DNA of 64,000 bases from an uncultured virus (IMG/VR IMGVR_UViG_3300031087_000457) (IMGVR_UViG_3300031087_000457), one strand, 5' to 3'; positions 2 to 18,717 are shown, counted from the first letter of the stretch. Made by a program: numbers and translations. The notes: a model not told the origin generated them from the letters alone.

Positions 2-1291
2 GAGCACTATGGCTCCAAGGAAGAGGCCACTCGGGCCTATGAGACTCGCATGGAGGCAGAGGCTGATGGAGGCCGGGAGGCCGAGCGGAAGGCTCAGGCA
101 GAGGAGCGTCTCGCCAGGGTCGAGGAGAAGGTCCTTCGGGAGGAGAACAGCGAGCTCGACTTCGACATCATCCGCCACCAGCTCAAGTGGATCCGAAAGT
201 GGGAAGAAGACTGGACGGAGGACGATCACTACAATCTTCGCATCGTTCAGAAGCTCACACAGCTCACCTCGGAGGATGACTGGAACGAGGAGAAGGAGGC
301 CCAGGCGGAGCGACTCCTCGCGGAGATGAGACCAGCTGTGGATAGGCCCTACATTCGTTACCCAGGAAGTAGGGGTGGCTGGTCCACCAATGATCCGAGC
401 TGGAACGACTCCAACGCCCGGGACCAGAGCCTCAACAAGCTCGCAGAGAATCTCCTGCAGCGTCGGCGCATGGAGGAGCTCTCCCACGAGCCTGTGGAGG
501 GTGAGCTCGACAACCCTCGGCTCCTCGGGCTCAGGGATGCCCAGGAAGCCGCGCTCCAGGAAGCTGCCTACTTCCGTCGCTACACCGGAGAGGTTGAGGT
601 TCGCATGGGCAGGGTTGAGCCCCATCTGCAGGAATCAATCTCCCGGGTAGCTCGCGGGGACGAGTGGCATGGGCTCGCCGAGGGTGCTGACCACCGGAGC
701 CTTCTTCCGGTTGGAGAGCGCGTCTTCGCCGCCATGCATCCGGATGCTCCCGGTGACCTTCGCAACAACCAGCTCTACCTGGCCACGGTCTTCCCGGTCC
801 GAGAGCTCAAGGCTGAGATGGACCGCATCGGCATCGACGGTGTTTCGGTCTCCACCCTGGACAACGGCCGGGAGCAGGGCAATATCTACACCGTGATGAC
901 CCCCGACGGAAGCACTCGATCCTTTGCCGTCTATGAGCACCGGAACAGCGACTCCATCATCATCAACGGCCGGGAGGACTGGAACGGAGAGGGGCTTCCC
1001 TACGCTGGAGACAATAAGAACCAGTTCTTCGCTGAGTTCGAGGAAGAGGACCGGGTGCGAGCCGCACAGTCGCTGACCTTCTACCTCTCGGCGGCCCAGA
1101 AGGGTACCCTGGAGGAGGATGCTGAGCTCGTTGCCAAGGCGCAGCACCGGGACTGGAATGCTATCCTCGACGCCCAGATTCCGGGCTTCAAGGCCTGGCG
1201 GCAGGAGCAGATCACGGATCGCTACATCGCTCCCGAGGATGAGAACGAGGAGGACATCCTGAGGCGCCTCGACTTCCCGAGCAGCAGCTAG
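2..1291 (+). CDS. 5'-truncated hypothetical protein carrying the end of the shared His/Cys N-terminal tag
   Basis: Frame is open from base 2 (EHYGSKEEATRAYETRM...), so the true start lies upstream of the window; typical codon usage; followed by a hairpin. Confidence 0.8.
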   Translation, partial: EHYGSKEEATRAYETRMEAEADGGREAERKAQAEERLARVEEKVLREENSELDFDIIRHQLKWIRKWEEDWTEDDHYNLRIVQKLTQLTSEDDWNEEKEAQAERLLAEMRPAVDRPYIRYPGSRGGWSTNDPSWNDSNARDQSLNKLAENLLQRRRMEELSHEPVEGELDNPRLLGLRDAQEAALQEAAYFRRYTGEVEVRMGRVEPHLQESISRVARGDEWHGLAEGADHRSLLPVGERVFAAMHPDAPGDLRNNQLYLATVFPVRELKAEMDRIGIDGVSVSTLDNGREQGNIYTVMTPDGSTRSFAVYEHRNSDSIIINGREDWNGEGLPYAGDNKNQFFAEFEEEDRVRAAQSLTFYLSAAQKGTLEEDAELVAKAQHRDWNAILDAQIPGFKAWRQEQITDRYIAPEDENEEDILRRLDFPSSS

Positions 1292-1312
1292 AGTAGCACA
1301 GAGCACATAGCG

Positions 1313-1353
1313 GGAGAGGCCGTCGGAATCCAATCGGATCCGGCGGCCTCTCC
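1313..1353. terminator. GC-rich inverted repeat between convergent genes (probable bidirectional terminator)
   Basis: ggagaggccg...cggcctctcc. Confidence 0.7.
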
Positions 1354-1388
1354 TGTAGCCTTGCGTAGGCTGCAGCTACGGCTGAAGC

Positions 1389-2258
1389 TCAGTCTCCGTC
1401 GATGTCCCTCTTGAGACGCTCAAAGAGCTCCAGGAAGACACCCACATCGATGCGGTAGGGCTCGGGGAGGTCTCCGTAGGTAGTTCCGGTTCCCGCTGGA
1501 AGAGGCTCAGGATCTAGAAGCTTCGGTGAACGCTCGTCGCTGCGAAGGTAGCGAGCGACAACCGACCGAGTTCGGCTGTAGAGAGGAATGAGCGCATCCT
1601 GACTAATGCGAAGCTCCTCGGAGGCGTAGGGAAAGAGCCGACTGGTGAGGATCTCCCTGAGCCGGCCATCGGCGGTGGTGTAGCGGTTGGGATCGAACTC
1701 ATCCTCGCTGCTGTTCCAGTAGACTGAGTCGAAGGGCTCGTCGGTGCGTCCCAGGGTCCAGCCCGGAAGATCCCCGAAGGTTCCCTCGGCGTTCTCCAGG
1801 GACTCCCATTCCTTTCCTCGGGCCTTCCACTCCTTTCGAGTGAATTCCTCCGGACCCTCGCTCTGATCCTGGTAGTGGTAGTCCTCGAAGAGCCCCAGGG
1901 ACTCAAGGGCTTCCCCGTAGGCGGGCTCGGAGTAGTAGCTGTAGGCAAGGAGATTGCCAGCAGATGAGCGGCCGAAGACCAGGGAGAAGCGCAGGGGATC
2001 ATTGAGTGTGTGGTGCTTTCCGTAGCTCTGCTGCCGCTCCTTCCACTGCCTGTCCAGGTCGAGAAGGACGGGCCAGCGAGGATTCTCACTGTCGAAGGCT
2101 CCATGGTTATCCACGAAGCGGAGGAGCTCTTCGGCTACGAGCTTTCGGGCCGCCTCCTCGAAGACAGGCCGAACGGCCTCGGCGATCTTCGGAGTGAGCT
2201 CGAGGAGATCTGTCTGGGGATCGATGAGCCTCAGTCCATTGTAGAGCTTCACTGACAT
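1389..2258 (-). CDS. hypothetical protein
   Basis: Long ORF; likely start MSVKLYNG at 2258 after a GGAAGG RBS-like sequence. Confidence 0.75.
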   Translation of the reverse strand: MSVKLYNGLRLIDPQTDLLELTPKIAEAVRPVFEEAARKLVAEELLRFVDNHGAFDSENPRWPVLLDLDRQWKERQQSYGKHHTLNDPLRFSLVFGRSSAGNLLAYSYYSEPAYGEALESLGLFEDYHYQDQSEGPEEFTRKEWKARGKEWESLENAEGTFGDLPGWTLGRTDEPFDSVYWNSSEDEFDPNRYTTADGRLREILTSRLFPYASEELRISQDALIPLYSRTRSVVARYLRSDERSPKLLDPEPLPAGTGTTYGDLPEPYRIDVGVFLELFERLKRDIDGD

Positions 2259-2520
2259 GGGGTGCCTTCCGGAGGTTGAGCTTTGTTCGCGCGGGCGCTG
2301 ATAGCTAGAGTACCGATCAGCCTGAGGACGATGTTTGCCCGCCGTGATAGAGGAGCTGCTGATAGGTGTTGGCATTGAGACCTTCAAAATTTGGGAAGAT
2401 TCCCATGGTGAGAACTGCTGTCGATTCATCACCTAGAGCGCTGTAGTCGCGAGACTACGCACTTTGAACGATGTTTCGGTACCATGACATCACAGCAATA
2501 GAACCAGACCAGGAGAACTG

Positions 2521-4653
2521 ATGGCGGAAGCTAAGGGTGCAGCGTACAGCGCCAATGACATGGACGAGGTGGACGACAAGGCCCACTACCGTATGCGTCC
2601 CAACCTCGTCTGGGGCGGAGAGCTCGGAAGCCCCGAGCGACCTTTCTCGACAATGCAGAGGACTGCCCTAAGGGAGATCTACGAAAATAGTGTAGACGAG
2701 GCGCTCCAGGGCCACGCGGACAAGATCTCGGTGCACCTCTTCGAGGATCACTCCTTCGAGGTCATCGACAATGGCCGTGGTCTCCCCACTGACATCAACA
2801 AGAAGACCGGCAAGTCCGGCATCTACCAGGCTCTGGGCACGCTGCGCTCCGGCCGTAACTTCGACTCAAGCGACGGCAAGAAGTCCACGGGAACCAACGG
2901 ACTGGGTGCATCTGCTGTCACGATCTTCTCGAAGCGCTTCGATGTGACGGTCTACCGGGGTGGAAAGCAGTACGAGCTTTCCTTCCGGGCCGGTGAGGCT
3001 GGAACCTTCGAGGGCGACGGACCGGATGCGGCCTTCTCGCCCATCAGCGATGTGTCCTACATGAAGATCTCCAAGGACGCTCGCCCCAAGGCAGAGCGCG
3101 AGGGCTGGGAAACCGGCACGAAGATCCGCGTGTGGTTCGATCCTGACGCCTTCCCCACCAACTACCACTACGACGACAACGAGATCGTCGAGCGCCTCAA
3201 GGGCACGGCCTTCCTCGTCCCCAACCTGAAGATCTTCGTCACCAACGAGCTCAACAGGACCGTGGATGAGCAGACCGGCGAGGTCACCATCCAGAAGGAG
3301 GTCTTCGACTTCCCCAATGGCTTCGGCGACATGGTGACGGCCTTCCAGCCCGACCAGCCCATCATCTCTGAGCCCGTCGTGCTCAACGGAACGGCGAAGC
3401 TCGTCACGAGGACTCCCGTGAAGCAGGCCGACGGCAACTTCAAGAACATGGATGTAGAGAAGGAGGTCCCCTACACGGTGGCCTTCTCCTACGGTAGTGG
3501 CTACGACAACTCGCTCCACACCTTCGTCAACACGGTGAACACTCGAGCCCACGGCTCCCACCTCACCGGTGTGCAGAACGCCATGGTGACTGCCTTCAAT
3601 GAGCGCTTCGACTCCATGCGAGGACTCCTCACCAAGAGCGACAGCCTCCCGAAGGTGGATGACTATCTCGAGGGCCTCACCCTGGTGGTGTCGATCTACC
3701 TGTCCTCGGCTCCCTTCACCTCTCAGTCCAAGGAGGCGATCTCCAGCCGACCCGTGCAGAAGTCCATCCAGGATGCTGTGGTGGAGGACTTCAAGAACTG
3801 GATCAAGGCTCCCGCCAATCAGGCCGACCTGAAGGCCATCGCGGCCAAGGTCACCACGGCTGCGAAGAACCGCCAGCAGGTACAGAACCAGCGGGATCTC
3901 CAGAGGCAGAAGAACGAGCTCAAGCAGAGCTCCCTGCCGGACTCACTCATCGACTGCGAGCTCTCGGGCACGGATGCTGCTGAGCTCTACATCTGCGAGG
4001 GAGACTCCGCTAAGACCTCCCTGAAGGCCGCCCGCGATGGTCGCATCAATGCGCTCCTCGGTGTGCGAGGTAAGATCATCAACGCCTACGGCAACAAGAA
4101 CAAGATGTCGGATGTGCTCAAGTCTAAGCCCGTCCAGGAGATCATCAAGGCTCTGGGCGCTGGAGCCGGCAGCGACTTCGACATCAACCAGGTTCGCTAC
4201 GGCAAGGTCTTCTTCGCGGTGGACGCCGATGTGGACGGCAACGCGATTGCCGTCGGCCTCTACGCGCTCTTCTGGGTGCTCTTCAGGCCCCTGGTGGAGG
4301 CTGGAAGGATCTACAAGATCGAGCCTCCCCTGTTCGCCATCCTCACGGATCAGGGCACGAAGTCCAAGAAGCACTACGCTCGAGACGACGCTGAGCGCGA
4401 TGTGGTCATGGCCAAGCTCCAGAAGCAGAACATCAAGTTCCGCGTGTCCCGGCTCAAGGGTCTCGGTGAGATGGAGGATGACGACCTCGAAGAGACCGCC
4501 ATCAACCCTCAGACTCGCATCATCACGCAGGTCACCACCAAGGATCTCGAGGCTGCTCGGCAGGCTCTGGACATCGCCATCGGCGATGATGTCTCGATCC
4601 GCAAGGCCTGGATCGAGTCCTCCGAGGTGGACGAGGAAGAGCTCCTCTCCTAG
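2521..4653 (+). CDS. gyrB: Type IIA topoisomerase B subunit (GyrB/ParE-like)
   Basis: GHKL motifs EIYENSVDE, DNGRGLP, GTNGLGAS; TOPRIM motifs EGDSA, RGKIIN, DADVDG; RLKGLGEM; AGGAG RBS. Confidence 0.93.
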   Translation: MAEAKGAAYSANDMDEVDDKAHYRMRPNLVWGGELGSPERPFSTMQRTALREIYENSVDEALQGHADKISVHLFEDHSFEVIDNGRGLPTDINKKTGKSGIYQALGTLRSGRNFDSSDGKKSTGTNGLGASAVTIFSKRFDVTVYRGGKQYELSFRAGEAGTFEGDGPDAAFSPISDVSYMKISKDARPKAEREGWETGTKIRVWFDPDAFPTNYHYDDNEIVERLKGTAFLVPNLKIFVTNELNRTVDEQTGEVTIQKEVFDFPNGFGDMVTAFQPDQPIISEPVVLNGTAKLVTRTPVKQADGNFKNMDVEKEVPYTVAFSYGSGYDNSLHTFVNTVNTRAHGSHLTGVQNAMVTAFNERFDSMRGLLTKSDSLPKVDDYLEGLTLVVSIYLSSAPFTSQSKEAISSRPVQKSIQDAVVEDFKNWIKAPANQADLKAIAAKVTTAAKNRQQVQNQRDLQRQKNELKQSSLPDSLIDCELSGTDAAELYICEGDSAKTSLKAARDGRINALLGVRGKIINAYGNKNKMSDVLKSKPVQEIIKALGAGAGSDFDINQVRYGKVFFAVDADVDGNAIAVGLYALFWVLFRPLVEAGRIYKIEPPLFAILTDQGTKSKKHYARDDAERDVVMAKLQKQNIKFRVSRLKGLGEMEDDDLEETAINPQTRIITQVTTKDLEAARQALDIAIGDDVSIRKAWIESSEVDEEELLS

Positions 4654-4674
4654 GAGCTGAGAGTAGCACCGGCT

Positions 4675-4715
4675 GGGGCCGGAGTCGCGGGCAACCGTTT
4701 GACTCCGGCCCCTTT
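4675..4715 (+). terminator. Intrinsic terminator after the gyrB-like gene
   Basis: ggggccggagtc...gactccggcccc followed by ttt. Confidence 0.75.
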
Positions 4716-4838
4716 GCCGTGTAGCATTGGGTCTGCAGCTTCCATCAACAGCTGTCACCGGAGGCTGTAGCTGTACGGCTCCGGTTCAGCTACTCGAAAC
4801 GACCGAAGGTACTAGCCCTCGAGAAACCGGAACTATCC

Positions 4839-6122
4839 GTGGACCTCTTCCTCTTCTTGCTGATCTTCTTTGTGCCTCTGTTTGGCTTTACCCTCGGTGC
4901 CTTTTTCCTCGACTCGATCAGCTATGCTATGAGCGAGCTCTGGGAACGGGCCGTACCCGCTCTTCGAAGAGTCTTCAAGCGAGACCGGCCGGTGATCGGC
5001 TACAAGCTCGTCGAGCTCGTGGATGGCAAGTTCATGCAACCAGGCAGGGGGAGCGCCCGAAACATCTTCAGCTCGGAAAAGATTCAGGCCGATGTGTCCC
5101 AGGACTCAGTCCTCGAGAGTGCGTCTGCGCTAAAGCGACAGTTCCTTGCGGAGATTCTCCTCTACGGCGATCTGGAGCAGTCTGATTACGACTACCGGAG
5201 CAGGGACCATCGAGTGCTCCAGATCGTAGCCCTTAAGCACCAGCCCATTCGAGGTCTGTTCAGCAAGGCCCGGGAACTCGAGGATCTACAGCCCCTCCTC
5301 GATGAGCTCCAGGAGAAGTCGGGGTCCGTTCAACCCCTGCGCTATGTGCAGTCCCTGGAAGATTTCGAGCCCACGGTGATCGAACCGGGCTGGCGGGCTC
5401 GCAGGCGAGCCTGGAGGCTCCGAGACTACTTCGCCACCACGAAGATGTTCTATGCTGCCGATGATCTCACCGTTGCTCCAGGATTGCAGCCGGTGACATC
5501 CTCTGGTGCCGCGATCTCCGGCACCGTTCAGAAGAGGCCTCGCCGTCGCAGGACCAAGGGCTTCGAGACGCTCATCGCTGAAGTTCAGACTCGCATTCCC
5601 GAAACAGCTGGCCGCAGTCTGCAGAAGACCCTGAAGATCCTCCTCGGAGAGCTCAGTGAGCTCCAGGGCCGGCTCACTGAATCAGAAGTCAGCCAGGGAG
5701 CCAGGCTCCTCGAGGCCAAGTACGGCCCCAGTGTTCGAAGGCTCATCGAGCTCAGCTCCCGGGACTACTACGGAAGCTTCTTCAGTGACCCCAAGCGCTG
5801 GAGCGATCCTCAGCGCATGGCGCTTCAGGTAGAGCTCTCTGCTGTCACTCTGGTCAAGGAGCTCACAGAGGACCTCAAGGGACTCAACTCGCCTCGAGAG
5901 CTCGAATTCCAGCTCTCGGTGCGATCTCTGGTCGGAGCAGACAGCCAGCCTCGGAGCCTGGAGGAGCCATCCGTGAATGCGGTCCTCGGGAAAGATCGTG
6001 CTGAGCGTCCCGACTTCCAGGGGGACCTGGAGAGTTTGCGAGAGGCACTGACGACCGAGGAGGCAGCGCTCCTCGAAGAACAGAGCCGGCCTAAGAGCCT
6101 CAAGCAGATGCTACTCGGTTAG
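4839..6122 (+). CDS. Membrane-anchored hypothetical protein
   Basis: N-terminal hydrophobic helix; shares a domain (GYK...EILLYG...HRVLQI) with the next ORF. Confidence 0.75.
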   Translation: MDLFLFLLIFFVPLFGFTLGAFFLDSISYAMSELWERAVPALRRVFKRDRPVIGYKLVELVDGKFMQPGRGSARNIFSSEKIQADVSQDSVLESASALKRQFLAEILLYGDLEQSDYDYRSRDHRVLQIVALKHQPIRGLFSKARELEDLQPLLDELQEKSGSVQPLRYVQSLEDFEPTVIEPGWRARRRAWRLRDYFATTKMFYAADDLTVAPGLQPVTSSGAAISGTVQKRPRRRRTKGFETLIAEVQTRIPETAGRSLQKTLKILLGELSELQGRLTESEVSQGARLLEAKYGPSVRRLIELSSRDYYGSFFSDPKRWSDPQRMALQVELSAVTLVKELTEDLKGLNSPRELEFQLSVRSLVGADSQPRSLEEPSVNAVLGKDRAERPDFQGDLESLREALTTEEAALLEEQSRPKSLKQMLLG

Positions 6123-6145
6123 AAGAACTGAAGGAAGGTATAACG

Positions 6146-6880
6146 ATGGACACTCCGGCAGAGTTTTTGACCACAATCCAAGAGACCATGATCGATTTTC
6201 TCAGATTGCTACCGTTTCTCATTCTAGCAGCAGTTCCTGTAGCTATGCTGGGAGTGATCGCCTTCAATCTACTGAGGCCAGCCAACCGCTTTGTGCAAGG
6301 CGAAGCAGTGGTAGCCTACAAGGGCGCGAATCTCACCGCACAGGGCTTCCGCGGTGTCTCCGGTGGAGGTCTCTACGGCCATCTCGAGGAGGGTGGGCTC
6401 GATCCGGGATTCCACGCCCTCAAGGACATCGATTCGCTCACGCACTCGATCTATGGAGTCGGCGCCGATGTCTACCTCGAGGTACTCCTCTACGGCAAGG
6501 TCGTGGAATACAAGAATGGCTACATCGGATCCCATCAGCGAGTGCTGCAGGTCATCTTCCCCGACCACAGGCTCTACTGCTACCGATGCTACAGCTCCCG
6601 GGCGAAGTACCTCGACGAGGAGCGTAGATCTTCTAGCCTCACCGGGACGAACAGCCCTCTGATCTGTGAGGACTGCAAGCCTAAGCTCACAAAGCGAACC
6701 TGGAGAATCCCTCTACTCTCACGCAGAAGCCATGAGGAGGATCCTAAGCGCTTCACTCCCCTGACTGAGTACTTCCAGGCTCGCAACGAACGAGATGGCA
6801 ACCCTCAGCCCGTCGGCTTTGCAAGCAGCGTAGAAGAGCTCGTGCCCACAGTTCTGCCGGACTCAGTTTCGGCACGATAG
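6146..6880 (+). CDS. Membrane-anchored hypothetical protein with CxxC...CxxC
   Basis: TM helix; AYK...GFHA...EVLLYG...QRVLQV; CYRC and CEDC. Confidence 0.8.
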   Translation: MDTPAEFLTTIQETMIDFLRLLPFLILAAVPVAMLGVIAFNLLRPANRFVQGEAVVAYKGANLTAQGFRGVSGGGLYGHLEEGGLDPGFHALKDIDSLTHSIYGVGADVYLEVLLYGKVVEYKNGYIGSHQRVLQVIFPDHRLYCYRCYSSRAKYLDEERRSSSLTGTNSPLICEDCKPKLTKRTWRIPLLSRRSHEEDPKRFTPLTEYFQARNERDGNPQPVGFASSVEELVPTVLPDSVSAR

Positions 6881-6905
6881 ATCCAACAGTAGAAAGGGGT
6901 ATCCC

Positions 6906-7265
6906 ATGTACCTAGGTAGCAAGGTCAGGAGCTTCCGCGCCGAAGACAGCGGCATCGTCGCTGCTGGAGCCCGAAAGACTCAGCCCATCGAGGAGATCGT
7001 AGCCGAGGTGGTTCCCGCTGTGGAGCTCACCGCTACGACAACTCCTGTTCCCGCAGCTGCTGATGTAGCTGAGGCCGTGACGGTGGAGGAGCGAGATCGG
7101 CTCCGAGGGCTCGTCGGCCTTCTGCGAAAGGTCAACGGTCGTCTGCGGCGAGACAACAGGCGGCTCACCAAGGAGAACGAGGCTCTCCGGGACGGCACTC
7201 CCGTCACCGTAGACTCGATTCTCTCGGCTGGAGCAACCGCACGGCAGGATGAGCTCACTCACTGA
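6906..7265 (+). CDS. Small hypothetical protein with a short coiled coil
   Basis: RBS gaaagggg; followed by a hairpin at about 7274-7316. Confidence 0.65.
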   Translation: MYLGSKVRSFRAEDSGIVAAGARKTQPIEEIVAEVVPAVELTATTTPVPAAADVAEAVTVEERDRLRGLVGLLRKVNGRLRRDNRRLTKENEALRDGTPVTVDSILSAGATARQDELTH

Positions 7266-7383
7266 GTCTGTCCGGGCCCTGGGCTCCTTCGCTTCGGCGA
7301 AGCGCCCGGGGCCTTTCGCATTCCCACGACGATAGTTCGATAGCACAACGGAATCAGCTGATCCCGAGAAATTGGAGGCACCC

Positions 7384-8607: not shown

Positions 8608-8641
8608 GAGCTAGAATCGGATAGCTAACTCAGCTCCATAG

Positions 8642-8686
8642 AGAGGAACCCCAGGTGTGCTCATCGCCCGCCTGGGGTTCCTCTTT
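8642..8686. terminator. Inverted repeat between convergent genes
   Basis: agaggaaccccagg...cctggggttcctcttt. Confidence 0.7.
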
Positions 8687-8760
8687 GTCGTGGATCGGTT
8701 CGCCATCGCTGAAGCGCTCCGAGGCGCTTAGAACGCGAGCTGCTGCCGCTGAGCGGCGGC

Positions 8761-9591: not shown

Positions 9592-10063
9592 TGTTGCCTA
9601 TCGGCTATCCTCACAACTTCTGCAGCTGGATGACACTCGGAAGTAGCGACCAAGGAGCGACCAAAGCTGAAAACTTCAGAAAGATTCCCCTAGTTCTCCC
9701 GGAGTTCCCGGAGAAGCGTTCAGATCGAGAAACACACACAGCATAGATCATAGCACTTGTTCAGCAAAGCTACGGGAGCAGATCTCTAGAGTCATACACT
9801 CTAGCTACCTACTTACAGACTATAGAAAGATCCGGGAGAGAACGAGAAACCATGGGGTCAGCATCGGGAGCAAGGGCCGTCTCAGCGACAGCCTACGACG
9901 CTCTCAGCGCCTCAGATCGCCACTCCGTGTCGTCGTATGGCCTCGGAGTCTTGGGCCCTCAGATCTGCAGCTACTGCTTCAGCGCCGAAGAACGAGCTCA
10001 TCAGCTGAGCTACAGTCGGTACACTACTGATTCAAGCACCACTACAGGGAGAACGAGGTGAGG

Positions 10064-12388
10064 ATGGCGAAGCCCAAGGAGCGTAGGATCATCCTCCCCG
10101 ACTCCCTACCGCTCCCCGGAAGACGGCCCGGCCCAGCTGAGCGCAAGAGCGACGGCTACCTTGAACTCGCTTCCGCCCTGCGCTCTAAGGAGCTCCTCTC
10201 CGAGTGGCTTCCTGGTTCTGCTGGCGAGGCTACCTCCGAACTTCAGCTCCGAGAGGCCCTCACGAGGACCCTGAGCGAACATGCCTCCTTCGGCTACATC
10301 CGGGAGAACTCAAAGCTCCCCCACAGCCACCCCAAGGACAGCTCCAGGATCCACTACACCATGACTTCTCAGTCGGGGTCCTCTGAGTTCCTTCGGCCCA
10401 ATGGCACCGAGTGGCTCGGAGCCGCAAGCGCACCTCGCTCCGGCAACTGGTCCGTGATTCCTCAGCCCGGCAGTCGACTCCTGGTCTTCGACCTCGATGT
10501 GAGCAAGAGCTCCCTGGACAGCGAGGGGGAGGCCACCACCACAAGCGCAGATGAGCGCTTCTCCGAAGCTCGTCGGAGCTTGAGCTACCTCGAGGCTCTC
10601 CTAGAGATCGATCTTCGGGGAACCTACGCTCAGCTCTCACCCTCTGGAGGCATCCACATCTTCGTGCTCCTCCCCGAGGGTGTGGATCCCAGTGAGCTAC
10701 CGGCCGCCAAGATCTCAGACGGCATGAGAGAGCTCGCAGGAGTACCCCTAGAGCACCGGGAGAGCCACTTCCGGGGCGACATCCGCTCGGGAGCTTCCAA
10801 CGGCTTCATCCTCATGGCTGGATCTCGCATCCGCAGCGTCTCAGAGGGTCCCAGTAGCTACTACAGGCCTCTGGTGTCCGACCCTCGCTGGAGCGACTTC
10901 CGGGACTACAGGAGCGGCCGTAAGCTTCGGCTCCTTGAGCTCCCGCCCCCTGCAGTTGAGCGTCTTCGTCGGGCTCGCTCCATCGATCTCGCCACCAAGG
11001 CCCGGAGAACTCCCACCATTGCAGATCGATCCCGGCTTCGGCCGTCCGCAGATCTCATCGTCCTTCCGCGAACGACTCGAGAGCTCCAGAGCAGCAACTA
11101 CAAGAAGCTCATCGACAGGCTGGCAGCAGCCTCTCCTCGAAGCTACCACGCTGCTCGAGCCCACATCTACCGGGCGCTGAGCTGCTGCGCGAGCCCGGAG
11201 GCCATCGCTGAGCTCTGCCGGGATGCTGGCTACGGCAAGGATACTCACCGGGGCCGGGAGCTCTCGGACAGCGAGCTCCTCGCTGACATGGAGTCCATGG
11301 ATCGCCGGGGTTTCACCGCTCTGCGCTGCGGACCCCACTGCGGCGCCCTCTGGGGTGAGTCCACGGGCTCTGACAACCACAGAAGCGAGCTCGAAGCCCT
11401 CGTGGATGCCATCCGTTCGGCCAAGCTCCTGGATCGGGCTGAGCTCAGCGTCATGGACTACCAGCGCGTGGAAGAGTCCTCCCTCCTCGAGGCTCGGGCT
11501 ATTCTCCAGCGTCGCTCACAGCGCGAGGGCGACTACGGGCTCTACGGGAAGCGAAAGCCCACTGGGCTCAACTACCTCAGGGCCACTGAGGCCATCCTCG
11601 GAGAGAAGACCTTTGCTGCTCGCATGGCCGGAGAGGTTGTGGCCGTCGCTGGCTATCGACAGCGTGCCCTGGAGCTCACTCTCGGCTACTTCGCTCCTCT
11701 CTTCGCGGCTGGAGCATCTGCAGTCATCGCTCCTGCTGAAGAGCTCATGGCACGCTTCGGCTGGAGCCGCTCACAGCTCCGGGAGGCACTGCGACTCCTT
11801 CGAAGCATCTCGCTGATCTCCCTGGAGCACCGCCAGGTCACGGGCAAGAGCTCAACCTACGCACCCGGTGAGAGCCGATTCTTCGACTCCACTCTGAGCG
11901 CAAAGCTTCGAGCTGCCTGGGGTGAGTCCAAGGTTGAGAACAGCCGGGGAGAGAAGGCCTTCCTCGGTGGCTTCTTCGACTACGCCCGAGGCCGCATCGT
12001 CCGACCCGATGGGAGCAGCTTCACTGACAGCTACCTCCAGGAGATCGGTGGAAGCTACTCAGGGCTCCTGATCCATCTCGATCTGCACATCCCCCAGGGT
12101 TCGGCCTTTGGCTCATCCTTCGTGAAGCGCTACCTCTCCAAGGCGGTGGCTCGCCACCGGGAGCTCTCTAGCCCCGAGGCCGCTGCGGTTGAGAACCTGC
12201 GCGAGCTTGCCCGGAGTGGTCCTCTCGATGGCGGACTTCAGTCCATCGGGGAACAGTTCCTCCTCTTGGGAGCAAGGAAGCCCGAATCTCGTGAGGATAG
12301 GAGCGCATTCGATTTTGGAGTCACGATCCATGGTCGCTCTCTCTGGAGGCGCCGCGGTGATCGATCTCCAGCAGAGGATCCCGGTTAG
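10064..12388 (+). CDS. Prim-Pol (bifunctional primase-polymerase-like) replication protein with C-terminal HTH; candidate Rep
   Basis: LLVFDLDV, SPSGGIHIF, GDIRS, GFILMAGS motifs; winged-HTH-like EELMARFGWSRSQLREALRLL. Confidence 0.65.
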   Translation: MAKPKERRIILPDSLPLPGRRPGPAERKSDGYLELASALRSKELLSEWLPGSAGEATSELQLREALTRTLSEHASFGYIRENSKLPHSHPKDSSRIHYTMTSQSGSSEFLRPNGTEWLGAASAPRSGNWSVIPQPGSRLLVFDLDVSKSSLDSEGEATTTSADERFSEARRSLSYLEALLEIDLRGTYAQLSPSGGIHIFVLLPEGVDPSELPAAKISDGMRELAGVPLEHRESHFRGDIRSGASNGFILMAGSRIRSVSEGPSSYYRPLVSDPRWSDFRDYRSGRKLRLLELPPPAVERLRRARSIDLATKARRTPTIADRSRLRPSADLIVLPRTTRELQSSNYKKLIDRLAAASPRSYHAARAHIYRALSCCASPEAIAELCRDAGYGKDTHRGRELSDSELLADMESMDRRGFTALRCGPHCGALWGESTGSDNHRSELEALVDAIRSAKLLDRAELSVMDYQRVEESSLLEARAILQRRSQREGDYGLYGKRKPTGLNYLRATEAILGEKTFAARMAGEVVAVAGYRQRALELTLGYFAPLFAAGASAVIAPAEELMARFGWSRSQLREALRLLRSISLISLEHRQVTGKSSTYAPGESRFFDSTLSAKLRAAWGESKVENSRGEKAFLGGFFDYARGRIVRPDGSSFTDSYLQEIGGSYSGLLIHLDLHIPQGSAFGSSFVKRYLSKAVARHRELSSPEAAAVENLRELARSGPLDGGLQSIGEQFLLLGARKPESREDRSAFDFGVTIHGRSLWRRRGDRSPAEDPG

Positions 12389-12432
12389 CGCCGATCCCGA
12401 TCCACAGGCCATACCTACACAGAAAGATACAG

Positions 12433-13596
12433 ATGCTCCCTCAGAATCTGGTGCTGGCAGTTGATCCCAGCTTTGAGCTCGCGGACGGCACTCGATCCGT
12501 ACGCACCACCTACAGCCCCGACTCCCAGCAGGAGCTCCAGGGCTACTCGGTGACCGTGATCGCTGACTCCCTGGTCCCCCTCGCACCCTTGGACTTCCTC
12601 TACGGCGACCGCATCGGTCAGCGCCTGGAGCTCCTCAATCCGCAGCGAATCACCACCTTCGTGGCCCGATTCCCCCGCTGCATCCTCTCCGAGTACAACA
12701 CTCACCGGGTCTTTTCTCGAAACTCCGCCTCGAGCCGCGCCCGGTCCATCAAGGTGGTCATCGCAGATGTGATGGAAGACCCCTATGTGCCTCTCTTCAC
12801 CGAGAACCAGAAGGGCATGGGTGGACCGATTGTGTCCCCTGAGGTTCAGGCCGCTGCCCGAAGGAGCTGGCTCCTCCAGCGGGACAGCGCAGTTGCGGGC
12901 GTGCTCGGCATGCTCCTCGGCCGCACCATCCCCGTCGAGGAGCTCTCCGATGGGAACTGGAAGACCCTGACGGAGGACTACTACCAGCGCGTCTACCTCG
13001 ACCGGGAGAACATCCCCGGCTCCCTGAACCTACACAAGCAGAATGTGAACAGGATCCTCGAGCCCTTCATGTGGCACGAGGCAGTCGTGACCTCCACCGA
13101 GTGGACCAACTTCCTCCAGCTTCGAGACCACGACGAGGCAGATCCCGCTATCCACGGCATCGCTAAGCTCATGGGCGTCGCACTGGAGGCATCCCGGCCC
13201 GTGGAGCGTGTGCTCCACGCTCCCTTCGCCGGTGAGCTCGTCCGGGAGTTCGAGGCACTGGGCTCTGACATCCTTTCCACGGATGCGCTTCGCAAGGCCA
13301 TCGAGGCTGCCAACTACTCAGCGGGTGCTGCTGCTCAGGTCTCCTACCGGCCGGTTGCTGGTGGAGGCACCGGAGCCAATCCCGCTAAGCTCGCTGACCG
13401 GCTCCTCGCCATGAGCCACCTTTCGCCCTTCGAGCACGCTGCTTTCAGTAGCGCCTGGCTGAAGTCCCTGGGGCTCCGGGATGAGATCCACAGCAACCTT
13501 TCCTCGGAGTGGACGCAGCACCGGGCACTCCTCTGGTATCTCCAGAAGCTCACCGGCAGGGATGGTCTACCGGCCGTCCTCGAGGTGCTGAGCTGA
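12433..13596 (+). CDS. thyX: Flavin-dependent thymidylate synthase-like protein (phage-type ThyX)
   Basis: THRVFSRNSASSRA, HKQNVNRILEPF, NFLQLR, HLSPFEH motifs. Confidence 0.75.
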   Translation: MLPQNLVLAVDPSFELADGTRSVRTTYSPDSQQELQGYSVTVIADSLVPLAPLDFLYGDRIGQRLELLNPQRITTFVARFPRCILSEYNTHRVFSRNSASSRARSIKVVIADVMEDPYVPLFTENQKGMGGPIVSPEVQAAARRSWLLQRDSAVAGVLGMLLGRTIPVEELSDGNWKTLTEDYYQRVYLDRENIPGSLNLHKQNVNRILEPFMWHEAVVTSTEWTNFLQLRDHDEADPAIHGIAKLMGVALEASRPVERVLHAPFAGELVREFEALGSDILSTDALRKAIEAANYSAGAAAQVSYRPVAGGGTGANPAKLADRLLAMSHLSPFEHAAFSSAWLKSLGLRDEIHSNLSSEWTQHRALLWYLQKLTGRDGLPAVLEVLS

Positions 13597-13764
13597 TCGG
13601 CACTTTGATATGGTCCTCAACGGAAAATCCGCTGGAGATTCCGTGAGAGACCGGGCCGGGGAACCATGCACAGGCGGCTTTGGCATCAAGAAGGTGAGAC
13701 CGTTCGTGATGCAGCTTCCCCGGCCCAATCTCCTCTCCGGACGAAGATCAGATGGGAGTAGCTG

Positions 13765-14025
13765 ATGGCTAGCCTCGCCAGTTTTGCGGACGCGGTCATC
13801 GCGGCTGCTGAGTCAGCGGCCGCAGAGACTCCGCCGGGCGAGAGGCAGAGCTTCGAGGTTCTCTTCTCTAGGTCCGTGAAGGACGCCATGGATAGGATCA
13901 ACGGGGGCCGGGTCGACAGCTACGACTTCGGACCCTGGGTGATCTCCAACCTGATCCTCCTCGCGGACCTCGAAGGCTATGAGATCTCGGAGACCGTAGA
14001 CTTCCTCAGGGAGCTCCTGGACTGA
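13765..14025 (+). CDS. Small hypothetical protein
   Basis: GGGAG RBS; typical codon usage. Confidence 0.6.
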   Translation: MASLASFADAVIAAAESAAAETPPGERQSFEVLFSRSVKDAMDRINGGRVDSYDFGPWVISNLILLADLEGYEISETVDFLRELLD

Positions 14026-14155
14026 AACTCCTGGCAAACTGGCCAAAGTATTTTAGTCAACGGCTGGAGAGCAGACTCCGGCGTTTTTAGATAAGATCAC
14101 CCACACCGAAACTTCAGGGATGAGACACATCCCACGCTCCTAGAAAGGGAAGAGA

Positions 14156-14443
14156 ATGGACGAAATCAAGTTCTCGATCGGCGACCACGACGCGCTGATC
14201 TTCACCAAGAACGACTGCGTCAACTGCGACTCCACCAAGTCGCTCATGGACGAGCTAGAGATCAGCTACACCATGGTCAACATGGACGAGGTTCCAGGAG
14301 CCAAGGCCGCCGTGAAGGCCGCTGGATTCCGCCAGGCTCCCGTTGTCATCACTTCCTCCAAGAAGTGGTCCGGCTTCGAGGAGGCTCAGATTCGGGCCCT
14401 GAAGCCTCGCGACCTCTCGGCAGACGACGACATCTGGGCCTGA
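14156..14443 (+). CDS. nrdH: NrdH-like glutaredoxin
   Basis: CVNC active site, GFRQAPVV, WSGF. Confidence 0.85.
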   Translation: MDEIKFSIGDHDALIFTKNDCVNCDSTKSLMDELEISYTMVNMDEVPGAKAAVKAAGFRQAPVVITSSKKWSGFEEAQIRALKPRDLSADDDIWA

Positions 14444-14464
14444 TCCTCTCGGTTCGTTCTCTTT

Positions 14465-14506
14465 CAGGAGGGGCGCCGCAGCGAATGTGCTGCGGCGCCC
14501 CTCCTG
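14465..14506 (+). terminator. Strong hairpin after nrdH
   Basis: caggaggggcgccgcagc...gctgcggcgcccctcctg. Confidence 0.75.
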
Positions 14507-14555
14507 TGTTTAGAGAAGACGCCAACATCAGCTTCCGAATTCTACAGGAGAGATC

Positions 14556-15569
14556 ATGGCTAGATTCCACATCGCAGAGGACGGCACTCCCGGCGCCTGC
14601 AGGGCAAAGACCGTCGAGAGCTGCCCCAAGACCCAGGCAGGCGACGGATTCCACGGCACCCTGGAGGAAGCTCAGGTAGAGTCCGAGAGGCGCTTCGCTA
14701 AGGAGTTCGGGGAGATCCCCACCAACAGCAAGGGCAATGCTCCAGCAACCCGGGAAGCCGCTCTGGCCGCCAAGAAGAAGGAGCTCCAGGATTCCCGGGA
14801 CCGCTTCTCAGATTCTTCCACGACTGAGCCCGAGCGCAAGGCCATCGAGGCCTGGTGGAGGAAGCAGCAGATCGACTCTCCCTACGCGGCCATGAGCCGG
14901 GTTCAGGCCCTGGAGTTCCAGGAGAACCGCAAGAACCGCACTCGGGTTGAGAAGGCTCACTCCGCTCAGATCTTCGGAGCTCTCTCCCACGCCTCTCCCT
15001 ACAGCCAGGAGAACATGACCATGGGAGAGCGCATCGCCGCCGGAGCAGAGAAGAAGATCGAGCGAAAGGATCTCAGTAGCTCTCACGCTGAGCTCGCCAT
15101 GAACCTCGTGGCCTTCGCCTCGGATGCTGACAGGGACTACATCATCAACGATGTTGCAGAGCGTGACCTCCACCTCTTCGAGGGCCAGAGAAAGGGCTTC
15201 GGCAAGGGTGACTTCGCCGGGCTCGTCAAGGTCCACAGGGCAATGGTGGAGCGCTACGGCCAGGGCGCTGTTCACGCCAACCTCACCAATCAGCTCCCCG
15301 AGGATGTTCGCAACGAGTACCGGGAGGACGGCAATCGGGATGGCATCGGCTCTCTCCGCCCCTGGGGTCAGCCCTCCAACTCGATCCAGAACATCCACGA
15401 TGAAACAGCTCACATGCTCGCTCAGCATGTGATCGACAGCTACGGGCCTGAGAACGCTGAGAAGTTCTGGAGCGAGGCTTCCGCCACGACCGGCAACAAC
15501 CGGGCCACGCTTGCCAATGTCTTCAAGACCATGAGGAAGTTCAACAAGGAGCGAGGCATCAAGGGCTAG
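14556..15569 (+). CDS. Hypothetical protein with the shared His/Cys N-terminal tag
   Basis: MARFHIAEDGTPGACRAKTVESCP...FHGTLEEA; AGGAG RBS. Confidence 0.85.
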   Translation: MARFHIAEDGTPGACRAKTVESCPKTQAGDGFHGTLEEAQVESERRFAKEFGEIPTNSKGNAPATREAALAAKKKELQDSRDRFSDSSTTEPERKAIEAWWRKQQIDSPYAAMSRVQALEFQENRKNRTRVEKAHSAQIFGALSHASPYSQENMTMGERIAAGAEKKIERKDLSSSHAELAMNLVAFASDADRDYIINDVAERDLHLFEGQRKGFGKGDFAGLVKVHRAMVERYGQGAVHANLTNQLPEDVRNEYREDGNRDGIGSLRPWGQPSNSIQNIHDETAHMLAQHVIDSYGPENAEKFWSEASATTGNNRATLANVFKTMRKFNKERGIKG

Positions 15570-15622
15570 AGAAGGATCAAAGTGAGACCCTCGGGAGTCA
15601 ACAGAAGTTGATCCTGAGCGCG

Positions 15623-15659
15623 CAGCCTAGAGCATCGGTAGCTTCGATGCTCTAGGCTG
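15623..15659 (+). terminator. Hairpin downstream of the 14556 ORF
   Basis: cagcctagagcatcg...cgatgctctaggctg. Confidence 0.7.
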
Positions 15660-15725
15660 TTGCTCTGTGCGCTTGGAGCGAACTTTCAGAGGAATGCCAC
15701 TTCGTGATGGCGTTACCATAGGCGC

Positions 15726-16226
15726 ATGAAATCAACCGAAACCATCGCCGCTCAGGGCCGCGCTGCAACACAGGAAATCTTCGCCACTGCCCGGGGAGAC
15801 GAGCTCGACCGGATCATGGATCTGGGGCTACCCCGGAGCACCTTCGCCGGGCTTGCAGCTCGAGTCATCGTGCAGAAAAGTGCCGAGCCCCTTTTCCACT
15901 GCAAGTTCAAGGTTGAGCCCGGACTCTCCGGGCTCAAGCCTAGGCTCTTCATCGATGGAACGCTCACTGAGCTCCAGCAGGTAGCAGCTGTGGTCGAGGG
16001 CACTTTCGAGCTCGCCCGGCAGCTCTACCACTCCAGCGAGGACGACCGCTCGGACCTCGACGCCTGGCTCTCGGCAGACCTGCGCTCAGAGGTTCGAACC
16101 GTGGCTCCTGCCTTCATCGCCGTCTATGGTGATGATAGGTCGATGCTCAAGATCGGACCCTCTGATGCTCCCTGGGGGTTGGGGAGCTTCAAGGCCCTCA
16201 GAAGGTTGGTGCTCAAGGATGGCTAA
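15726..16226 (+). CDS. Hypothetical protein, overlaps the topA start
   Basis: ORF; TACCAT just upstream (possibly a leaderless transcript). Confidence 0.7.
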   Translation: MKSTETIAAQGRAATQEIFATARGDELDRIMDLGLPRSTFAGLAARVIVQKSAEPLFHCKFKVEPGLSGLKPRLFIDGTLTELQQVAAVVEGTFELARQLYHSSEDDRSDLDAWLSADLRSEVRTVAPAFIAVYGDDRSMLKIGPSDAPWGLGSFKALRRLVLKDG

Positions 16227-17577
16227 GAAGACACTCCTCCTCGTGGAGGCTCCCTCGAAGGCTCGCCACATCCAGCAGTTCCTAGGCAGCGACTACATCG
16301 TGAAGCCCACCGTGGGCCACTTCCGCGAGATGCCTCTGCCCCGGGACATGAAGCCCGCCGACAAGGCCAAGTACGGCGACTACGCCCAGGACACGGCTGG
16401 CAACTTTGAGGCTCTCTACAAGATCTCCAAGGATAAGACGAAGCTCGTCAGTGAGCTCAAGACCCTGCTCAAGTCGGTGGATGAGCTCGTCCTTGCCACC
16501 GACGCCGACGCCGAGGGTGCAGCGATCTCCTGGCACATCCTCCAGGAGCTCAAGCCCAAGGTTCCCACCTATCGAGCAACCTGGAACGAGATCACCGACC
16601 GGGCAGTCCGTGCGGGACTCGCGGCCAAGCAGCCCGTGGATGAGAAGAAGCAGCTGCCGGCCGACTTCTTCGGTCAGGTGGAAAGCGCCCTCGCCCGCAG
16701 CCAGTGGGATCGGCTCTTCGGCTATGGTGTCTCGCCCCTCATGTGGAAGATGGTTCGAAGTGGAACCTCCGGCGGCCGGGTCCAGACGCCAGGTACCAAG
16801 CTCGTCGTGGAGCGTGAGGAGCGCCGGCTCGCCTTCAAGAGCGTAGCCTTCTACACGATCTACGGCACCTTCGACGGCATCAAGGCCAAGCTCGTGGACA
16901 TCAACGGCAAGAAGATCGCGGATGCCTCGAAGATCGATGACGAGGGTAAGCTCGCAGCTGGCTACAGCCTGATCACAGACAAGAACCTGGAAGCCGTACT
17001 CAAGGCCCTGAAGGCCAAGAGCTACGAAGTCGGCGAGGTCAAGTCAAAGCCCTATCGGCGCACGCCTCCGCCTCCCTTCACCACATCCACAGCGCTTCAG
17101 TCCATCGGCTCGAAGACCCGCATGAGTGCGAAGCAGCTCACCGCCGTGCTCCAGTCGCTCTATGTGGGCACCCACTGCACCTACATCCGTACGGTCTCCG
17201 TGGAGGCAGCCCCCGAGGCCATCGTTGAGGCCCGGAAGGAGCTCAAGAGGCTCTTCGGGGCGAAGCTCGTACCCGCCAAGGAGCGTGTCCACAAGGACAA
17301 GAAGGCTGGCAACAGCGGCCACGAGTGCATCCGTCCTGTGCTCGACGACTCCAGCGGAAAGCTCGTCAATCCCAAGCTCTCGGGCAACGACCAGAAGGTC
17401 TTCGAGCTCATCCGGCTGCGATTCCTCGCATCTCAGTCCATCGACTGCGAGGGCACGACCTGGAGCACATCCTTCATCGCCACCGACGGCAAGGCCACCT
17501 TCCAGGCAAGCGAGACGGAGATCCACGAGCCCGGCTGGACCACGGTCTATGAGATGGACGATGAGGTCGGCGCCTGA
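16219..17577 (+). CDS. topA: DNA topoisomerase IA, N-terminal part (TOPRIM plus catalytic Tyr)
   Basis: LVEAPSKA, ATDADAEG, SGGRVQT, PPPFTTS, CTYIRT (catalytic Y), HECIRP; ends at GWTTVYEMDDEVGA*. Confidence 0.9.
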   Translation: MAKKTLLLVEAPSKARHIQQFLGSDYIVKPTVGHFREMPLPRDMKPADKAKYGDYAQDTAGNFEALYKISKDKTKLVSELKTLLKSVDELVLATDADAEGAAISWHILQELKPKVPTYRATWNEITDRAVRAGLAAKQPVDEKKQLPADFFGQVESALARSQWDRLFGYGVSPLMWKMVRSGTSGGRVQTPGTKLVVEREERRLAFKSVAFYTIYGTFDGIKAKLVDINGKKIADASKIDDEGKLAAGYSLITDKNLEAVLKALKAKSYEVGEVKSKPYRRTPPPPFTTSTALQSIGSKTRMSAKQLTAVLQSLYVGTHCTYIRTVSVEAAPEAIVEARKELKRLFGAKLVPAKERVHKDKKAGNSGHECIRPVLDDSSGKLVNPKLSGNDQKVFELIRLRFLASQSIDCEGTTWSTSFIATDGKATFQASETEIHEPGWTTVYEMDDEVGA

Positions 17578-18410
17578 TGCCTCAGGGTTGGCATGTGAAT
17601 CTCGAAACTGGAGAGCCCGGCGAGTGCAGGGCTCGAATCAGCTGCCCCTTCGGGAACGATGATCTGCACTTTGACACCGAGAGTGATGCTCGAAAGTTCT
17701 ATGAGGCGAAGATGAGCAAGTACACCCTTGCGGAGCTCGTTCAGAAGAGCAGGATGCGCTCTCCCTGGCGCAGTATCTCCTGGGAAGAGAGAAAGCAGCT
17801 ACTTCAGGCCTATGTTGATGAGCGAGTTCAGATCACCAGAAAGCTCAGAAAGAAGCGCATTCGCATCGACTGGCAGAATGTGGTCAATAGCAGCTTCGAT
17901 GTTCTAGGCTACGCAGACGAGGAAGCTCGCACGCTGAATCTTGCCGAAGGAGCGGAAGCCCTGGAGGAGACCAGCGTAAAGGCTCTGATCGTCCATGAGT
18001 TGGCCCATTTCCTTGAGCCCAGGCGCTCCAGCGAGGATCACGGAAAGAGCTGGCGCAGCGGCACCGAACTCCTTTCGAGCTCTGACGAAGACATCAGAAG
18101 CTTCAGTTTTCAGAAGAGTTCTCAACACAGTGTTCTAGAGGCACTGAGACGCGAAACACAGAAGCTTGAGCTCCGGGCGCCTAAACACATCGGGAAATGC
18201 GCTAGGGGTCACAGTTTCTACGCCAACATCATCCCCAGGGACACGAGCTGTAGTCTCTGTCGAGAGGATGTTCATTTTCAGAAGGACTACACCCTGTTCT
18301 CAGCTGTCGAATGGGACAGCTTCGATCTAGAATCTAGCGAGGGCCAAAAATTCATCGCTAACCAGCTTGGTAGGATGGGCTTCGGAAAGGAAAACAGAAC
18401 TCATGGATAG
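17577..18410 (+). CDS. SprT-like zinc metalloprotease with the shared His/Cys N-terminal tag
   Basis: LIVHELAH...DHGKSW; C-terminal CARGH...CSLC; ATG overlaps the topA-N stop. Confidence 0.75.
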   Translation: MPQGWHVNLETGEPGECRARISCPFGNDDLHFDTESDARKFYEAKMSKYTLAELVQKSRMRSPWRSISWEERKQLLQAYVDERVQITRKLRKKRIRIDWQNVVNSSFDVLGYADEEARTLNLAEGAEALEETSVKALIVHELAHFLEPRRSSEDHGKSWRSGTELLSSSDEDIRSFSFQKSSQHSVLEALRRETQKLELRAPKHIGKCARGHSFYANIIPRDTSCSLCREDVHFQKDYTLFSAVEWDSFDLESSEGQKFIANQLGRMGFGKENRTHG

Positions 18411-18717
18411 GATCGACTCAAGCGCTCTCACCGCGTTTCTCAGCTCGCTCAGGGAGCATAGCTACACAGAGCTGACGCCATCCGGCAGCGTCAATCGCTT
18501 CGACTCTACTACGGTCTCTTTTGACAGTAGTGGTCGCTTCCTTTGCTACACTACAGTCGAAGACGGAGTTCTCTACTCGTTCTACTCGGATCTTGAGCTC
18601 TATAGAGATAGCTCCGAAGGTGTGGCCGTCGCTACGGATGCGAGCGATTTCGACCTCATCAACGGTAGGCTCAAGACCGAACAGCATATCTTGGCCTTTG
18701 GTCCAAGCTTCGATTAG
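18403..18717 (+). CDS. Small hypothetical protein
   Basis: ATG overlaps the previous ORF end; AAGGA RBS. Confidence 0.6.
   Translation: MDRIDSSALTAFLSSLREHSYTELTPSGSVNRFDSTTVSFDSSGRFLCYTTVEDGVLYSFYSDLELYRDSSEGVAVATDASDFDLINGRLKTEQHILAFGPSFD

Follow-up and report, generated by a model that had tools for sequence, protein, structure and literature searches.

A short N-terminal His-Cys-Cys-His domain heads unrelated proteins of giant extrachromosomal elements that carry type IV secretion genes

XVIPCD, on the type IV secretion system (T4SS) effectors of Xanthomonas, and BID, of Bartonella, are C-terminal domains of about 100 amino acids (aa) or more that hold no metal and are read by VirD4. MIX and FIX of the type VI secretion system (T6SS) and LXG of the type VII secretion system (T7SS) are N-terminal marker domains of polymorphic effectors. 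In phage T4, the internal proteins and Alt carry a cleaved capsid-targeting leader of about 10 residues without a metal site, and this cargo enters the next host together with the DNA and counters host defences. Here we describe a short N-terminal domain, hereafter the tag, which is shared by three proteins encoded in a 64,000-nucleotide (nt) stretch of DNA from an uncultured virus (IMG/VR record IMGVR_UViG_3300031087_000457; the whole stretch is called the window), and trace it to a lineage of giant elements with T4SS genes. A preliminary description of this DNA had proposed that the leader is a substrate-recognition signal for translocation or packaging.

Polyvalent proteins, which Iyer et al. 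(2017, PMC5512222) regard as effectors of the early phase that act upon invasion, combine 2-15 domains in one polypeptide, and several of the domain types found behind the tag occur in them. Among giant elements, Inocle is an extrachromosomal element of 395 kb and 32% GC (PMC12340149), and the Hodor megaplasmids measure 211-389 kb at 45-47% GC (PMC12934698); both carry VirB4/VirD4-type conjugation genes. Within the searched text of these three papers, to which the statements above also refer, no such tag is mentioned for polyvalent proteins and no N-terminal Cys/His tag for Inocle or Hodor. The literature search on giant T4SS elements returned only Inocle, Hodor and unrelated papers.

An N-terminal H-C-C-H domain on unrelated bodies

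The tag is an autonomous N-terminal His-Cys-Cys-His (H-C-C-H) mini-domain of about 46 residues that heads hundreds of unrelated enzymes. A first profile (A1), made from the three window tags, was searched against 1.84 billion cluster representatives and matched 2370 of them at E<=0.001 and 51 at E<=1e-10. Among the 150 best matches, 148 start at residues 1-9; the exceptions are P0107 (residue 107), whose start was probably mis-called in GC-rich DNA, and P0162 (residue 22). In the metagenomic loci described below, nearly every tag begins at the first Met of its open reading frame (ORF), and the tagged proteins are 65 to 478 aa long. The preliminary description had allowed that the motif might be confined to two proteins; the profile search of N-termini places it far beyond these, at the N-terminus and on diverse bodies.

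The consensus reads M-[AS]-[KR]-[YF]-H-[IV]-N-x(0-3)-G-[NE]-P-G-x-C-[RK]-A-x(3-5)-C-P-[FL]-G-x(3-6)-H-[YF]-x-[ST]-x-E-E-A-[RQ]-x-A-[YF]-E, with a ligand spacing of approximately H-x10-C-x5/6-C-x7/8-H. Across 314 unique tags the four proposed metal ligands are near-invariant (H5 100%, C16 100%, C22 about 100%, H30 96%), and the fourth His stands in the next column in 6% of tags, a one-column shift found in the subtype of ORF 14556. Other strongly conserved positions are G11 (98%), A18 (96%), A37 (98%) and E42 (92%).

All three sequences quoted in the preliminary description were found in the window, on the plus strand. ORF 17577 (17577..18410, 277 aa) starts MPQGWHVNLETGEPGECRARISCPFGNDDLHFDTESDARKFYEAKM and carries a 46-aa tag at 17577..17714 with putative ligands H6, C17, C23 and H31. 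ORF 14556 (14556..15569, 337 aa) starts MARFHIAEDGTPGACRAKTVESCPKTQAGDGFHGTLEEAQVESERRF; its 47-aa tag lies at 14556..14696, with H5, C15, C23 and H33 in the ligand positions, and belongs to an 'ESCPKTQAGDxFHG' subtype that is also present in P0066, P0078, P0089, P0092, P0096 and others. The head of ORF1 lies beyond the window edge: frame 2 is open from base 2 to 1291, and 2..52 encodes the last 17 residues of a tag, EHYGSKEEATRAYETRM, with the fourth-ligand His at nt 5-7. A hidden Markov model (HMM) built from the 314 unique tags was run over the 1198 six-frame segments of the window and recovered ORF 17577 (E 1.3e-20), ORF 14556 (5.9e-14) and the ORF1 head (1.7e-4, profile positions 30-47). 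The best remaining segment reached only E 0.071 and was off-frame, so the window holds exactly three tag copies, none of them by chance.

For ORF1, the preliminary description had predicted that the missing upstream part would supply the first His, the C-R-A element and the second Cys. These are present at the N-terminus of the closest homologue, P0005 (465 aa, 90% identity, 100% coverage), which carries a complete tag, MTKYHINPETGAPGICRADPSNPNSRGCRFKASEDEHYASKAEAEKAYEARMEAEADG. The ORF1 body (2..1291, +) belongs to a conserved family with 61 homologues; its gene is next to a GyrB-like gene in locus L026, as it is in the window. According to the tag HMM, 48 of the 61 family members are tagged. 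The remaining 13 bodies stand without it, some behind other small Cys/His heads and some without any head, so the leader is exchangeable. Cys/His-rich heads of other types, such as C-x6-C-x2-H, occur in P0047, P0048, P0052, P0053, P0029, P0032, P0058 and P0059, and may be analogous interchangeable leaders. AlphaFold2 (AF2) modelled P0005 with a predicted local distance difference test score (pLDDT) of 90.2 overall and 70-84 over the tag, and a predicted template modelling score of 0.83; a Foldseek search with this model gave no PDB match at E<=0.001.

The modular layout of one leader on variable cargo, first suggested for the window, holds at large scale: in addition to the 2370 representatives, 252 bodies of at least 80 aa fall into 140 single-linkage clusters, of which 98 are singletons. 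The three window bodies are likewise unrelated (best pairwise BLASTP E 0.38). Any Pfam family was recognised in the body of 10 of 148 representatives and of 13 of 93 scanned locus proteins, the latter drawn from 108 non-redundant tagged ORFs after 15 close duplicates were left out. The families comprise Zeta toxin kinase, ART-PolyVal (P0091, L044:1124-1888 and L040:3747-4451), GNAT, methyltransferase, RNase_T, YqaJ, T4 RNA ligase, 2H phosphoesterase, NUDIX, MvaI/BcnI, GmrSD_C/HNH nucleases, YunG and DUF7448, and the annotated bodies are mostly conflict-type enzymes. Across the tagged proteins of all loci, Cys is scarce beyond the tag, making up 0.3% of the bodies and 0.1% of the 30 residues after the tag.

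In the window, the body of ORF 14556 has no family in Pfam, NCBIfam or PHROGs. The SprT-like metalloprotease assignment proposed for ORF 17577 is weak: the HELAH motif is there, but the match to PF10263 (E 0.002, 18.4 bits) falls below the gathering cut-off of 25.6. Among its orthologues P0002-P0004, the last two carry a precomputed PF10263 label, and ORF 17577 itself matches phrog_3768.

AF2 modelled P0101 (65 aa, 148 aligned sequences) at a pLDDT of 81, with strands at residues 3-6 and 12-15 and a helix at 34-52, and the P0005 model is headed by the same hairpin and helix elements. In these models the tag is predicted to be a beta-hairpin, a Cys-Pro knuckle and an acidic helix, a small unit presumably cross-braced by metal; the H-C-C-H site most likely binds zinc. 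Structural comparison gave a weak, Kunitz-like best match with Foldseek (E 0.7), and VIA-align placed Kunitz-type domains on top (Z 3.6, root-mean-square deviation (rmsd) 2.4, 42 aligned residues). Kunitz/BPTI domains have three disulfides from six Cys, and this fold was rejected given the weak structural likeness and only two conserved Cys in the tag. A classical C2H2 or Ros/MucR finger was set aside on ligand order, which is Cys-Cys-His-His in C2H2 zinc fingers and differs from that of the tag. As to the beta-hairpin plus helix fold of such fingers, the tag model has both elements, and the sole zf-C2H2 structural row had a Z of 2.2 at rmsd 6.0. The ZAS anti-sigma zinc motif, H-x3-C-x2-C, has a different spacing, and there was no Pfam match (zf-HC2). 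The second Cys is followed by Pro in no more than 78% of tags, which weakens a heme-regulatory Cys-Pro reading. The net charge of the tag averages -1.09 (helix part -1.29) and is <=0 in 79% of tags; this acidity points to a protein partner rather than nucleic acid and argues against the earlier suggestion that the tag loads proteins on DNA.

The preliminary description did not recognise a named family, and the wider search agrees: the tag is not covered by Pfam, NCBIfam, PHROGs or the PDB sequences searched. The 50-aa window tags matched no Pfam, NCBIfam or PHROGs family at E<=1, no Pfam family covered the tag region in the 148 representatives and 93 locus proteins, and PDB sequences gave no match with either a single-protein or a profile query. 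In the ESM Atlas, P0101 had weak matches only (0.82) and P0013 nothing usable; the nearest labelled cluster was DUF8081 (PF26297), at a weak score of 0.77. The Pfam copy searched lacks the PF26297 model, and a newer release may cover the tag. In the main text of the literature searched, the strings HINPETG and HVNPETG had no match and YHINP hit unrelated words only. No counterpart of the domain, of its putative metal site at the N-terminus, of its link to giant T4SS elements or of the promoter-like motif described below turned up in the libraries and papers searched, and to that extent all four are new.

Giant T4SS-bearing elements, tagged-gene arrays and an upstream motif

The tag characterises a lineage of extrachromosomal T4SS-bearing elements of giant size (0.2-0.83 Mb). 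Pattern scans for loci used nine close tags (A3), as A1 and A2 were too diverse for this purpose, and the tag is encoded at 43 of 93 pattern matches in metagenome contigs. The tag HMM counts about 125 N-terminal tags in these 43 loci. Many of the loci lie on contigs of 220-727 kb, other tagged proteins come from contigs of 573, 683 and 828 kb, and the window's own contig measures 293,436 bp; the GC content of tag loci spans 0.33-0.62. Sampled words of the window were recovered from two phyllosphere metagenome runs of separate studies at fractions of 0.73 and 0.65. In the viral and plasmid collections searched the tag was nearly or wholly absent: the IMG/VR scan yielded one weak locus among 113 pattern matches, unconfirmed by the tag HMM, tblastn of P0101 matched none of 50,697 phage and 72,556 plasmid records, and that of the ORF 14556 tag none of the same phage records. 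An expectation that the motif would be common in Actinobacteria and mycobacteriophages was not borne out, with the tag in none of 401 sampled Actinomycetota genomes and no phage match. Thirteen apparent relatives of the ORF 17577 tag in a scan of genome contigs were off-frame, low-complexity translations of Streptomyces DNA.

The tagged genes had been described as dispersed. This is true inside the window; in related elements, dense arrays of up to 9 genes are found. L015 and L016 each hold 8 tagged genes within 8.7 kb, L031 and L043, two overlapping loci of a single 437-kb contig, have 17 distinct tagged ORFs between them over about 35 kb, and L046, L036 and L044 hold 7, 6 and 6, respectively. 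Several truncated, tag-only remnants within the arrays indicate turnover. Identical residues use the same codon in 0.30 of within-locus tag pairs, compared with 0.29 between loci; such scrambling of synonymous codons points to selection on the protein rather than on the DNA, marks the array tags as old paralogues, and is why a reading of the arrays as DNA cassettes was rejected.

Annotation of 143 neighbour ORFs in seven loci revealed RNR, NrdI, thioredoxin reductase, dCMP deaminase, NAD ligase, GyrB, SMC, ARH, Macro, ClpS, HNH, T5orf172, FtsK-like ATPases and DUF285 proteins, with no ribosomal genes among them. In 27 loci (about 430 kb in total) there is a single tRNA. Together, the lone tRNA and the lack of ribosomal genes make it unlikely that the giant contigs are small cellular genomes. 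This tRNA (L041 12495-12567, minus strand) has the anticodon CTA, is called tRNA-Pyl by ARAGORN and is amber-suppressor-like.

The window itself encodes GyrB, ThyX, NrdH, a split TopA, DnaG, VirD4, NikA, TadE, PhoH, TrbL/VirB6, a lysozyme+M23 protein, a sigma-like protein, an SbcC-like protein and a T2SSE ATPase. The VirD4/TraG-type coupling ATPase (25865..28441, +) has TrwB_AAD_bind and TraG-D_C domains and is a candidate reader of the tag; a TrbL/VirB6-like channel protein (37322..41494, +) adds to the T4SS context. The window VirD4 has 178 homologues at 46-97% identity, whose longest contigs (673,773, 697,643, 828,236, 573,400 and 683,316 bp) have the sizes of contigs with tagged proteins. 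The VirD4 family is a core gene of the tag-bearing lineage and co-occurs with the tag on giant contigs. Some of its homologues, namely P0287, P0292, P0296 and P0280, reach 1.1-1.4 kaa and contain intein/homing-endonuclease domains (PF14528, PF05204), and the insert of P0280 matches HNH/intein regions of mycobacteriophages.

A short motif, TTAGA[AGT]A, is found upstream of tagged genes at a median of 33 nt from the start codon (interquartile range 28-43). Of 96 tagged genes, 57 have it in the 90 nt upstream, as do 17 of 518 other ORFs, and at least 4 of these 17 are divergent tags; the background is 0.023 per 90 nt. With a fixed window of -70 to -15 and an upstream gap of at least 60 nt, the counts are 27/53 and 11/327 (odds ratio 30, Fisher p 3e-18, a value inflated because orthologous loci such as L015/L016 and L051-L057 are counted separately). 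Conservation is limited to the 7-8 motif bases and no -35-like element was seen. The geometry would fit a -10-only promoter, and the motif is accordingly termed promoter-like. An origin as the stop context of the upstream gene was rejected, the TAG closing an open frame of at least 60 codons in only 12 of 75 cases. Arrays, quick turnover and a motif of their own indicate that the tagged genes form a co-regulated set.

In the window, motif sites are as frequent as chance would have it (7 observed vs 8.4 expected). One, TTAGAGA at 14510..14516 (+), lies 46 nt upstream of the ORF 14556 start. ORF 17577 has no upstream motif; instead it is coupled to the N-terminal topA fragment through a TGATG junction, its start overlapping the stop of the fragment by 1 nt. 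Two further TTAGA[GT]A sites precede untagged genes: 14087-14093 (+) lies 69 nt upstream of the NrdH-like ORF 14156, and 30373-30379 (+) lies 42 nt before ORF 30415-30729, which encodes a membrane protein of 104 aa in the T4SS cluster. A few untagged genes may thus also be driven by the motif. An untagged family of about 165 aa (MDEQ...ATEVFTVTEQ; L051-L056, e.g., L051:13402-13899) has TTAGAnA upstream in five orthologous loci. A protein with Sigma70_r2 as its only sigma-70 region (46631..47818, +) is a speculative candidate for reading the motif.

The topoisomerase I gene of the window is split over 16126-19800. ORF 16126-17577 covers Topoisom_bac positions 5-288 plus Toprim, and ORF 18733-19800 covers positions 297-410 plus a C-terminal repeat; the two halves are separated by the tagged ORF 17577-18410 and by ORF 18367-18717, an arrangement that resembles an insertion in a core gene. 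Elsewhere in the window, 10058-12388 encodes a 776-aa ORF with a weak GntR-type Pfam match, whose N-terminal part looks primase-polymerase-like by eye.

Possible readers of the tag

We infer that the tag probably marks the enzymes behind it for one shared partner. It would then be a modular recognition handle, with a single partner reading all tagged proteins, and the likeliest candidate would be the substrate-recruitment machinery of the element's T4SS, either the VirD4 coupling protein or an adaptor. The tagged enzymes could enter the recipient cell with the DNA and aid establishment there, much as Alt and the internal proteins of phage T4 do. Four observations point this way, namely the effector-like layout, the overlap of the bodies with the domain repertoire of polyvalent proteins, the co-occurrence with VirD4 and the absence from the phage records searched, and we tentatively favour T4SS recruitment and delivery with the DNA as a possible function. 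The boldest form of this proposal is rather doubtful: the tag would be the first case of a folded zinc domain that acts, from the N-terminus, as a secretion signal for a conjugative T4SS, and together with the TTAGAnA code it would define thousands of effector families injected into recipients ahead of or with the DNA.

Conjugation systems do move many proteins according to the searched part of one account (PMC11288057), and the same part describes known T4SS signals as mainly C-terminal or internal, with N-terminal ones rare and ill-defined. Several observations weigh against a role in secretion, beginning with position: the tag is N-terminal, unlike most known T4SS signals, and it matches no described T4SS signal domain family in Pfam, NCBIfam or PHROGs. 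A folded metal site would have to be unfolded or pass the channel intact, and the metal itself is predicted from ligand conservation alone. VirD4, VirB6 and NikA make the elements putatively conjugative, and VirD4 and the tag may co-occur only as core features of one lineage. The motif statistics are inflated as noted, the 13 untagged members of the ORF1 family do without the tag, and the tag-only small proteins P0101 (65 aa) and P0174 (84 aa) suggest a domain with an activity of its own. A predicted complex of VirD4 residues 130-760 with the tag scored under the mark and counts neither as support nor as counter-evidence.

The same tag-only proteins would fit a handle that works inside the carrier cell, docking enzymes on one cytoplasmic partner without any secretion; the hub could be the sigma factor or RNA polymerase of the element, its replisome, or an adaptor that hands the entire set to a protease for removal at once. 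The conserved helix surface positions E35, E36, R38, Y41 and E42 and the acidic charge suit contact with another protein, and the upstream motif common to the tagged genes shows that they are co-regulated. A sigma-like protein is encoded by the elements themselves, and at L016 a ClpS adaptor is found 2 kb away from the array. However, ClpS is a neighbour in only one of the seven annotated loci, no partner was identified, and a hub alone does not explain why conflict-type bodies stand in fast-evolving arrays; we place this explanation just below T4SS recruitment in probability, with neither reaching even odds. It is improbable that the tag is a nucleic-acid-binding zinc finger that brings enzymes such as nucleases, ligases, methyltransferases and the SprT-like protease to DNA or RNA, perhaps to the strand being transferred. 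Many annotated bodies do act on nucleic acids and a beta-beta-alpha arrangement is predicted around the four-ligand site, but the tag is acidic, in its helix most of all, its H-C-C-H order is unlike C2H2, no Pfam zinc-finger family matches it, and the Zeta kinase, GNAT, ART and NUDIX bodies need not bind nucleic acid.

Its place exactly at the N-terminus, from Met1, and its being dispensable or replaceable in those 13 ORF1-family orthologues could also mean that the tag is a passive cap, a metal-stabilised fold which protects or solubilises fast-evolving proteins and has no specific partner. Exposed helix residues are nevertheless conserved over elements of 33-62% GC, and neither the restriction to one lineage nor a dedicated upstream motif would be expected of a generic stabiliser, which makes a cap distinctly improbable. 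Jumbo-phage-like auxiliary sets nearby (RNR, NrdI, ThyX, dCMP deaminase, NAD ligase, PhoH, HNH, T5orf172) and the locus with the suppressor-like tRNA recall a virus, in which the tag might load proteins into a virion-like particle as the T4 capsid-targeting sequence does. This packaging role, raised in the preliminary description, is very unlikely: PHROGs recognised neither capsid nor portal nor terminase in 30 ORFs of the window, Pfam found none in the window or the seven loci, the tag is nearly absent from the viral collections searched, and VirD4, VirB6 and NikA speak for conjugation.

Comparison with described systems

If the tag is a recognition handle, it offers a listing, from sequence only, of the effector and establishment arsenal of an almost undescribed lineage of giant T4SS elements, an arsenal that would already number 2370 clusters at 50% identity, most without a known fold. 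It would also provide a compact, portable tag for tests of protein delivery by Gram-positive-type conjugation systems, and the TTAGAnA motif gives a handle on the timing of gene expression in giant elements. Even with another function, the tag would be a new, widespread family of small, putatively metal-binding domains outside the family and structure libraries searched.

Like Inocle and Hodor, with which they were compared by description only and within the searched text, the tag-bearing elements are giant, metagenomic and equipped with a T4SS; unlike these, their contigs reach 828 kb and span 33-62% GC. With polyvalent proteins, as described in the searched part of PMC5512222, the tagged set has ART-PolyVal, GNAT, methyltransferase and a weak SprT-like (zincin-like peptidase) domain in common. 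In contrast to them, the tagged proteins are 65-478 aa long, have at most 1-2 body domains, are encoded by separate genes and come with their own tag and motif.

Among targeting sequences, the T4 leader resembles the tag as a short N-terminal leader common to unrelated proteins, but its context differs, since the window ORFs include a T4SS instead of capsid or prohead-protease genes. XVIPCD and BID share with the tag the principle of a conserved folded domain common to many proteins with different enzymatic parts; the tag departs from both in being N-terminal, about 46 aa long and built around a putative metal site, it has no sequence relation to either, and reading by VirD4 is in its case a proposal. 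MIX, FIX and LXG belong to other secretion systems, whose core genes (T6SS, T7SS) were not recognised in a Pfam scan of the window, and none of them is an H-C-C-H knuckle. In layout, though, they match what we observe, combining an N-terminal marker with a variable C-terminal enzyme, many paralogues, arrays and fast turnover. Polymorphic effectors are known for this plan of a marker joined to variable enzymes and arranged in arrays, and the tagged proteins of the giant T4SS-bearing elements follow it.

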